Sequence record: PP925839.1
Reading direction: 5' to 3' (one strand)
Length of the DNA: 64,000 nucleotides
Source of the DNA: Escherichia phage PinkRuby
Shown here: piece by piece, positions 4,170-4,757 of the stretch
Layout of the letters: each line of letters begins with the position of its first letter
Position numbering within the stretch: the first letter of the stretch is position 1
Translations under genes and position numbers: made by a program
Notes under the pieces: model-generated
Seen by the model: the letters and a program-made list of their open reading frames with translations, nothing else
Databases searched by the model: none
What the model was told of the DNA's origin: nothing

Positions 4170-4202
4170 CTAAAAAGCCCCAACCTTTCGGCTGGGGCTA
4201 AG
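4170..4202 (-). terminator. 33-bp repeat copy 1: hairpin terminator downstream of 4207..4680
   Basis: Minus-strand RNA AGCCCCAGCC-GAAA-GGUUGGGGCU then UUUUUAG; identical to 4725-4757. Confidence 0.65.
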
Positions 4203-4206
4203 AATG

Positions 4207-4680
4207 TTATTTGATTTGTTTAGCAGACCAAATGCGGTCTTTAATAATCTTTTGGATGTCTTCAACATACTCTAGGTCATGAGCATGTGGATTATCTTTG
4301 AAACTATGAGCTCGCGCAAGTTTCTGGCCTTCGGTCTTAATTATCAAAAGTTCTTTAAGAATTGCTTCATACCTAGAGATAATTCCTTTAGCAATATTTT
4401 TTTCTTGTGCTGCTTTAGGGTCAGCCTTAGGAGCAGGTTTACCTGAAGCCTTTGCAAAAGCAGCTCCAGTAGCAACTAAACTTTTCCAAGCCATACTAAC
4501 TGCATTCCCTGTAAATCCTTCGGCTTTCATATCACGAGCAAATTGGAATCGTGATTCATCGGAAGCATCTTTATAGGAATATTTACCCGCGGCAATGGCA
4601 GCTTTTGCGACAGCTTGAATTTCGGTGCTAGATGCTTCATTTAACACCGCTTCATTTAAAAATTGAGCATATGATTTCAT
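4207..4680 (-). CDS. capsid-targeted internal protein (IPII position, divergent)
   Basis: 157 aa; N-terminus MKSYAQFLNEA is CTS-like; TATAAATA late promoter on minus strand at 4717-4724; flanked by 33-bp direct repeats. Confidence 0.55.
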   Translation of the reverse strand: MKSYAQFLNEAVLNEASSTEIQAVAKAAIAAGKYSYKDASDESRFQFARDMKAEGFTGNAVSMAWKSLVATGAAFAKASGKPAPKADPKAAQEKNIAKGIISRYEAILKELLIIKTEGQKLARAHSFKDNPHAHDLEYVEDIQKIIKDRIWSAKQIK

Positions 4681-4716
4681 CTTATTTCCTGTTTTAATTC
4701 GTGGTTTTAATATACT

Positions 4717-4724
4717 TATTTATA
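4717..4724 (-). promoter_or_regulatory. late promoter TATAAATA driving the IPII-position gene
   Basis: Exact TATAAATA on minus strand about 35 nt upstream of ATG, with AGGAA ribosome-binding site. Confidence 0.55.
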
Positions 4725-4757
4725 CTAAAAAGCCCCAACCTTTCGGCTGGGGCTAAG
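4725..4757 (-). terminator. 33-bp repeat copy 2: identical hairpin terminator upstream of 4207..4680
   Basis: Perfect 33/33 match CTAAAAAGCCCCAACCTTTCGGCTGGGGCTAAG (plus-strand reading); followed on minus strand by TATAAATA (4717-4724). Confidence 0.65.

Follow-up and report, generated by a model that had tools for sequence, protein, structure and literature searches.

The stretch analyzed here, referred to throughout as the window, comprises 64,000 nucleotides of Escherichia phage PinkRuby (PP925839.1), which belongs to Tequatrovirus and whose top matches were phages KRT47, G50, and ime09 (96-97% identity). Between its homologs of T4 genes e.8 and rnaC it carries, on the minus strand, a gene for a protein of 157 amino acids (aa), probably a packaged internal protein (4207-4680; RB32ORF133c family; first residues MKSYAQFLNEA); the same interval of T4 holds no gene and a single hairpin only. 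The gene is enclosed by two copies of a perfect 34-bp direct repeat, ACTAAAAAGCCCCAACCTTTCGGCTGGGGCTAAG, located at 4169-4202 and 4724-4757. On the minus strand the T4-type late-promoter motif TATAAATA occupies 4717-4724, 2 bases past the U-run of the upstream copy and 36 nt upstream of the ATG (4678-4680), and a Shine-Dalgarno sequence, AGGA, was read from the sequence at 4687-4690, 6 nt ahead of the start codon. Codons 1-10 (4651-4680, minus strand) form a leader of the capsid-targeting type that ends in LNE, with a predicted cut by the prohead protease gp21 after E10. The late motif occurred 24 times in the window vs. 9 expected copies, and no sigma-70-type promoter was matched on the minus strand between 4690 and 4760. 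In homologs with diverged leaders (KpV477, moskry, PhAPEC2, L020, and L022) xATAAATA was found 29-36 nt upstream of the ATG, the spacing being read only in homolog loci with readable upstream sequence. All genes in the part of the window around 4207-4680 lie on the minus strand; a coding role of the plus strand was rejected, as it holds there only open reading frames (ORFs) of ~40-80 aa that overlap minus-strand genes and RNA genes.

The direct repeat lengthened to 40 nt when 95% identity was accepted. Its 31-nt core (up to 3 mismatches) occurred exactly twice in the window and never in 100 shuffles, which ruled out a chance origin. The sense (minus) strand of both copies reads AGCCCCAGCC-GAAA-GGTTGGGGCT and then TTTT, giving a stem of 10 bp with seven G-C pairs, a GAAA loop, and a U-run directly after it. 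Folding energies of the 56-nt contexts were -22.5 and -25.2 kcal/mol (0 of 200 shuffles as good) and that of the 33-nt hairpin element was around -20.6 kcal/mol, whereas the plus-strand version of the hairpin was weaker and had no U-run. A consensus terminator scan of 3000-8500 yielded three sites, all on the minus strand (4754-4731, 4199-4176, and 3509-3491), and both repeat copies are predicted intrinsic (Rho-independent) terminators. The upstream copy (4724-4757, minus strand; hairpin 4731-4754, U-run 4727-4731) would close the tRNA-rnaD-rnaC unit and the downstream copy (4169-4202, minus strand; hairpin 4176-4199, U-run 4172-4176) the 157-aa gene; at the position of the latter, the records of G50 and PhAPEC2 carry a terminator annotation. 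A single near-identical hairpin was found at the equivalent place, just 3' of rnaC, in T4, RB7, and PST. Since T4 has one copy there and no gene, we take the upstream repeat to be the tRNA/rnaC terminator and the downstream repeat to be its duplicate. The gene's own terminator thus duplicates that of rnaC, and the result is a 555-bp unit bracketed by 34-bp direct repeats. A previous sequence-only reading of this locus had described a terminator, a late-promoter motif, a gene, and a second terminator, and all four parts were located in that order. The GAAA-loop hairpins with a minus-strand U-run were confirmed in both copies by folding and by the terminator scan; the perfect repeat, given as 33 bp, does flank the gene in two identical copies and is 34 bp long; the other coordinates, including those of the 157-aa ORF at 4207-4680, the late motif, and the ribosome-binding site, were correct.

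The leader of the 157-aa protein (MKSYAQFLNE-A, the hyphen separating residues 10 and 11) is comparable to that of T4 IPII and IPIII (MKTYQEFIAE-A), with LxE at the same residue 10. The capsid-targeting N-terminus postulated earlier therefore agrees with the T4 internal-protein leader in sequence and in LxE position. A strict leader pattern was displayed by two ORFs only in the window. The protein is basic like T4 IPI-III (isoelectric point, 9.4), and ratios of nonsynonymous to synonymous substitution rates (dN/dS) of 0.03-0.10 reflected purifying selection on the gene, thus indicating that it is functional. The protease expected to act on the leader, gp21 (Peptidase_S77, E = 1.5e-111), is encoded at 36730-37368 on the plus strand and is adjoined by gp22 and gp23. 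The predicted parts of the protein are the leader (aa 1-10), a three-helix N-domain (aa 18-71), a Lys/Pro/Ala linker (aa 75-87), and a helical-hairpin C-domain (aa 88-154); in an AlphaFold2 model (predicted local distance difference test score, pLDDT, 77) the leader was of low confidence and for the most part not helical, and was followed by three helices and, after a loose linker, by a long hairpin of helices. Residue 15 is the last of a second LNE. In Tequatrovirus, codons 1-15 (4636-4680) contain a tandem five-residue duplication, FLNEA-VLNEA, with two candidate gp21 sites, E10 and E15; the Mosigvirus and Klebsiella homologs have a single candidate site.

Searches in Pfam gave sub-threshold noise only for the 157-aa protein, NCBIfam gave no match, no PDB entry was matched by sequence profile, and Foldseek with the AlphaFold2 model against PDB and BFVD retrieved only its own orthologs. 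The protein matches PHROG 2280 (phrog_2280), of unknown function, and its family was labeled "hypothetical" in every record read. A search against phage databases, which had been proposed as a check, located it by tblastn in 511 phage records, annotated as hypothetical. The family is small, with 14 clusters in a search of 5.8 billion proteins and only 13, of the same architecture throughout, when 1.8 billion representatives were searched exhaustively by profile. Its members have in common an N-terminus resembling the leader, a helical N-domain in which an AWKS motif is conserved, and a linker rich in Lys, Pro, and Ala, followed by one of two alternative helical C-domains; the leader-like N-terminus, always with an acidic residue at its end, is kept in the most distant members (E ~1e-4, profile search). 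With the Klebsiella homolog as query, tblastn gave 520 records, from Tequatrovirus, Mosigvirus, Jiaodavirus, and phages of Yersinia, Serratia, Erwinia, and Enterobacter; the hosts of the ~520 sequenced T4-like phages with homologs comprised Escherichia, Shigella, Yersinia, Klebsiella, Serratia, and Enterobacter, and the homolog was situated downstream of tRNA genes in all loci examined. In Klebsiella phage KpV477 (1795-2330) the linker of the homolog is interrupted by an in-frame TAA, and the record annotates a coding sequence of 78 aa; other Jiaodavirus records have an intact 177-aa homolog. In one IMG/VR contig the 5' half of the gene was ~35% divergent and the 3' half near-identical, and RB32 presented the opposite pattern.

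A reading of the gene as a divergent ipII was rejected on both position and sequence. T4 ipII, at 65416-65718, adjoins ipIII and gene e, that is, it lies across gene e from the e.8-rnaC interval; the canonical ipII/ipIII locus of G50 is filled by two other leader-bearing genes; and BLASTP of the 157-aa protein against T4 IPI, IPII, and IPIII aligned the leader only, nothing being shared beyond chance elsewhere. As the two G50 genes are additional, phages of this type carry around five leader-bearing genes at three loci. Two internal-protein loci have been described in T4 (PMC12373910). The e.8-rnaC interval appears to be unrecorded as a third locus for leader-bearing genes, and the same appears to apply to the widespread "hypothetical" proteins of 157 and 187 aa as members of the internal-protein class.

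The 187-aa protein is encoded by the adjacent gene (3518-4081, minus strand; RB69ORF149c / RB14ORF136 family), an independent cassette whose product starts with the leader MKTYAEFLTE-A. The occurrence of both genes was surveyed with a 2-kb query from e.8 to rnaD, which matched 744 phage records; 60 evenly spaced records were classed by spanned length. Spans of ~2.03 kb corresponded to both genes, of ~1.35 kb (the most numerous class) to the 157-aa gene alone, of ~1.48 kb to the 187-aa gene alone, and of ~0.79 kb to an empty state; Mosigvirus versions and more distant genera made up the rest. The 157-aa gene is polymorphic, with 511 carriers among the ~744 related records matching the region and with T4, T2, RB7, and PST lacking it; by tblastn the 187-aa protein was found in 164 records. 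The empty state is represented by T4, T2, RB7, RB59, and PST, the 157-aa gene alone by RB32, RB51, and teqskov, the 187-aa gene alone by G3F10, and both genes by this window, KRT47, G50, and ime09.

Junction sequences were read in one example per locus state. On the sense strand, the empty site of T4 and RB7 runs from rnaC through TTAGCCCCGACCGAAAGGTTGGGGCTTTTT directly into GGTATCTAGGCC, and the 157-aa unit (555 bp) sits exactly between these two sequences, starting with AGTATAAATAAG and ending, after the gene, with TTAGCCCCAGCCGAAAGGTTGGGGCTTTTT. The 187-aa unit starts with AGTTTGAATCAC and ends with CCCTATCTAAATGATAGGGCTTTTT; its terminator (3491-3509, minus strand) is a different hairpin (-10.4 kcal/mol), followed by TTTTTGGCATCTAGGCC, which is homologous to the sequence 3' of the single rnaC terminator of T4. 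In every state the sequence after the last terminator is GGTATCTAGGCC (GGCATCTAGGCC in this window and AGTATCTAGGCC in G3F10). The start of every cassette read directly follows the GGGGCTTTTT of the terminator ahead of it, and a terminator of its own closes it, so that the comparison of the locus across T4-like genomes, as the sequence-only reading had suggested, placed the presence/absence boundaries at the repeats, namely at the terminator U-runs. In L020 (700-1400), a distant metagenomic relative, different hairpins precede and follow the gene; TTTCGGG(G)TATCTA stands behind each of them, a motif of the same type as the GGTATCTAGG found after the last terminator of the T-even loci. In Mosigvirus, PhAPEC2 showed 97% amino-acid identity for the 187-aa gene and 74% for the 157-aa gene. 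This indicated separate histories for the two cassettes, and the high value of the former suggests a recent transfer of the 187-aa gene between genera. Another Mosigvirus, moskry, has behind the same terminator and TATAAATA a different leader-bearing gene, of 210 aa (MYTFNEFLAE...).

The hairpins themselves kept traces of exchange. The two hairpins of Shf125875 (Mosigvirus) are distinguished by their loops, GAAA upstream and TTAT downstream. Another Mosigvirus, G2285, has an empty site composed of the rnaC flank of Shf125875, the downstream-type hairpin with the TTAT loop, and the downstream flank, and this site is thus an exact hybrid of the two repeat copies. A crossover in the 5' arm of both copies would be expected to produce it; alternatively, it could be the starting point for the opposite event. 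Tequatrovirus hairpins vary in one dinucleotide of the stem, which reads GA or AG, and all four upstream/downstream combinations were found: the window has AG/AG, G50 and three IMG/VR contigs GA/GA, RB32 and teqskov GA/AG, and one IMG/VR contig AG/GA. Both variants leave the stem paired (-20.3 and -20.6 kcal/mol for GA and AG, respectively), and the occurrence of this double change at both positions implied a copy-to-copy transfer. A third variant, TT, is present in both copies of PhAPEC2. The hairpin scan of IMG/VR retrieved four contigs only, and counting the repeat copies per genome by megablast with 37 nt was uninformative, the variant copies falling under the word size.

All these factors taken together, we propose that the segment is a self-contained late unit, placed after the terminator of tRNA/rnaD/rnaC and bracketed by the duplicate of that terminator, which encodes a probable packaged and injected protein; we hold this to be fairly probable. 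The upstream hairpin would stop early and middle transcription coming from the tRNA genes, so that the gene would be expressed only late, from TATAAATA, by a unit made up of the 8-bp late motif, a 36-nt leader with the ribosome-binding site, 157 codons, and an intrinsic terminator; the downstream hairpin would insulate e.8. Recombination or slippage between the repeats could delete the unit precisely, and the unit could be installed again by the opposite event or by normal homologous recombination in the conserved flanks, which would explain why the locus is found in four states. At the protein level, the 10-residue leader would carry the product into the prohead core, gp21 would trim it after E10 and possibly also after E15, and the mature basic protein of ~15.5-16 kDa would stay in the head and be injected with the DNA. 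Once injected it might, speculatively and by analogy, neutralize a defence of the host, the most plausible target being a type IV (GmrSD-like) restriction enzyme. T4 Ip1, Ip2, and Ip3 are injected and each of them blocks one distinct GmrSD type IV restriction enzyme (PMC12373910), which gives more strength to the earlier suggestion, made with IPI as example, that internal proteins act against restriction. Several GmrSD variants restricting T-even phages have no known inhibitor (PMC12373910).

Several observations weigh against this proposal, some of them related to the repeats and others to the protein. The 157-aa gene is a mosaic with a breakpoint at around codon 80, in the Lys/Pro/Ala interdomain linker, which indicated that the two domains were exchanged separately; given this breakpoint inside the gene, much of the exchange would seem to bypass the repeats. 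The downstream terminator is another one in the Klebsiella, moskry, and more distant homologs, so that the gene can be present without an identical repeat. Moreover, 34 bp is short for efficient homologous recombination in T4. These data could be accommodated if the hairpins had been duplicated once and both kept as terminators, without a role in mobility, the gene being exchanged in co-infection by homologous recombination in the extended conserved flanks, formed by rnaC and by the e.8 promoter region. The flanks are indeed 93-97% identical across hundreds of bases among Tequatrovirus genomes, the internal mosaic breakpoints of the gene are unrelated to the repeats, and the terminators are not identical in Klebsiella phages, moskry, and metagenomic relatives. 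However, the crossover of the hybrid G2285 empty site falls inside the 5' arm of the hairpin, and the occurrence of GA and AG at both positions in all combinations needs either copy-to-copy transfer or repeated double mutation, so that we consider this explanation unlikely; flank-mediated exchange and repeat-mediated deletion are, besides, compatible with each other. The cassette exchange advanced in the sequence-only reading was thus upheld in that the junctions lie at the repeats, whereas exchange of the whole cassette is not the sole mode, in view of the breakpoint at the linker. Judging from these alignments, the repeats would be one route of change and not the only one. A very improbable explanation is that the unit is carried along by co-conversion when a homing endonuclease gene nearby in the tRNA region (e.g., segB) spreads, and not via the repeats. 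A study cited in PMC4122927 concerns the inheritance of the tRNA region as driven by SegB, and segB lies within ~0.5-1 kb of the site in T4 and RB32; nevertheless, T4 and PST have segB without the gene, and the window and G50 have the gene without a segB-sized ORF between the tRNA genes, the two features therefore not co-occurring.

Regarding the protein, no database names it as an internal protein, and in the literature no virion proteomics was found naming the 157-aa protein, RB32ORF133c, or RB69ORF149c. Supplements of virion mass spectrometry of Jiaodavirus (Klebsiella) phages contained no peptides of the Klebsiella homolog, the presence of an intact gene in those phages being unverified; the authors of that study reported low counts for all hypothetical proteins. 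The strong purifying selection together with the lack of a fold match provides no positive hint of anti-defence activity, and ip4-10, seven genes assayed against GmrSD variants, gave no reproducible inhibition, the identity of their sequences with the genes treated here not being established (PMC12373910). The 157-aa protein could therefore be a late cytoplasmic protein that is not packaged, its likeness to internal proteins having arisen through a DNA block, with ribosome-binding site and leader, that was spread by recombination. Such a block does exist, in the form of a 42-nt repeat common to the neighboring 187-aa gene (76% identity, 4050-4091 vs. 4649-4690), and both the missing proteomic detection and the "hypothetical" label of all records are in line with it. 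This alternative seems nonetheless quite improbable, since the leader is kept at the protein level, always with the acidic end, in members that are otherwise barely alignable, its LxE position equals that of IPII and IPIII, the basic isoelectric point and the late-promoter motif fit known internal proteins, and this leader is the defining mark of ip genes in the literature (PMC12373910).

A broader and clearly tentative extension, which we would rather doubt than assert as a whole, is that the e.8-rnaC interval constitutes a third, unnamed ip locus of T-even phages, missing from T4, T2, and PST, with at least three alternative leader genes (the 157-aa and 187-aa families and the 210-aa type of moskry). 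Its terminator and late-promoter modules would have the role that PeSLs (promoter-early stem-loops) have for early genes, making it possible for anti-defence effectors that are injected to be excised, lost, and put back as insulated units, and the 157-aa protein would be the inhibitor of a T-even-restricting system without a known antagonist. The 157-aa family, widespread, annotated as "hypothetical", and provided with an internal-protein leader, is a candidate injected anti-defence protein, with relevance for host range in many phages, therapeutic Tequatrovirus isolates included. The locus also offers a natural series (empty, either cassette, both, and a hybrid empty site) for the study of gain and loss driven by terminator repeats. 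The concept was already known, a new locus and a new protein family being the additions, of incremental value; specialists are not expected to be surprised, and the family is a concrete and testable candidate.

The 187-aa gene has AATAAATA 38 nt upstream of its ATG and occurs without the 157-aa gene in G3F10. BLASTP, hhalign, and profile comparison aligned residues 1-10 only of the 187-aa and 157-aa proteins, and these were therefore not treated as homologs; a shared family, as given by PHROGs (phrog_2280), was not accepted, BLASTP and hhalign yielding just the 10-residue leader. Unrelated proteins with one common leader are a published signature of internal proteins (PMC12373910). The moskry protein (moskry_164) was marginally similar to the C-terminal half of the Klebsiella homolog (E = 2e-4, a single comparison), and its comparison with the 187-aa protein was not significant.

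On the minus strand, homologs of e.2-e.8 occupy 109-3331 in the local gene order. On the other side of the cassettes lie the homologs of rnaC and rnaD (~4805-5066, approximate limits), which were aligned by eye to annotated T4 and RB7 records and for which there is no Rfam model, an unannotated 116-aa ORF between rnaD and tRNA-Arg (5066-5416), and eleven tRNA genes (5435-6455), all on the minus strand; the tRNA unit ends with rnaC and would be closed by the upstream repeat. The 116-aa ORF had no Pfam match, is labeled RB69ORF150c-like in relatives, and has no counterpart at that spot in T4. Past the tRNA genes the order is trna.2-4, a gene at the ipI locus, 57B, 57A, and gene 1. The ipI-locus gene (7481-7738, minus strand; 85 aa) starts with MKTFKEFATKTAITE before a serine and matches phrog_3499, "internal head protein"; its length and position equal those of "IpV" of Yersinia phage PST. 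It is flanked by a 69-nt direct repeat with 84% identity (7428-7496 and 7758-7826), a block that contains the last codons (DLK-stop) of 57B and of the ip gene plus an early-promoter-like GTTTACA...TACTAT, and the same locus (7405-7496 and 7733-7826) has a 25-nt repeat over the ribosome-binding site. At 55349-59506 (minus strand) two tandem paralogs of 685 and 698 aa were found, both with a PF03496 ADP-ribosyltransferase domain and both starting with MELITELF, whose DNA is 70-80% identical in blocks. The pair resembles a duplication of alt, which encodes another injected head protein and is present once in T4.

When compared with known systems, the 157-aa protein shares with T4 IPI-III (Ip1-3) a leader of ~10 residues whose (L/I)xE end has the same position, the small size, the basic character, and the presence of gp21 in the genome; T4 internal proteins are dispensable and variable between phages, and the 157-aa gene is likewise polymorphic. 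In contrast, no sequence or predicted-fold likeness extends beyond the leader, and the gene lies at e.8-rnaC and not at either of the two T4 loci. The T4 ipII/ipIII locus had no exact TATAAATA and no terminator-like hairpins in the same scans, whereas the 157-aa gene has both. RB32ORF133c (NC_008515, YP_803075) belongs to the same family, with a 474-nt coding sequence and the note "flanked by 34 bp imperfect direct repeat"; its copies differ (GA upstream, AG downstream) whereas those of the window are identical, and its record gives no terminator, promoter, or internal-protein reading. The repeat itself was thus already on record in the RB32 GenBank entry, and both the shuffling and the anti-restriction activity of internal proteins are published.

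The idea that conserved blocks on either side of leader-bearing ORFs mediate their shuffling at polymorphic loci dates from Repoila et al. 1994, as summarized in PMC4122927 and PMC12373910. By that account, the ip loci of T-even phages resemble the present one in having alternative leader-bearing ORFs with short conserved regulatory bounds, and differ from it in that their repeats carry an early-promoter-like sequence, whereas the repeat of the 157-aa gene is a predicted intrinsic terminator, is paired with a late-promoter motif, and is placed at another locus; the classical pattern was seen in the window at the ipI locus (69-nt repeats at 7428-7496 and 7758-7826). In the PeSL cassettes of T4-type phages (Arbiol 2010; Comeau 2014), modules made of a stem-loop terminator and an early promoter flank accessory ORFs, recombination between elements with excision of small circles has been proposed, and the cargo is transcriptionally insulated (PMC2839356, PMC4122927). 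The likeness concerns the elements flanking variable ORFs and the empty site of a sister phage, which holds a single element. The 157-aa cassette has, however, no sigma-70-type early promoter and carries the late TATAAATA instead, and PeSLs occur in many dispersed copies whereas the 157-aa repeat has two copies in 64 kb (up to 3 mismatches), none being added by a looser hairpin pattern. PeSLs are thus the closest mechanistic model, with two defining features failing here. Finally, the unit resembles morons in being an autonomous promoter-gene-terminator unit inserted between two conserved transcription units; morons have no conserved flanks acting as mobility vehicles (PMC2839356), whereas the 157-aa unit is flanked by identical repeats that mark its junctions.

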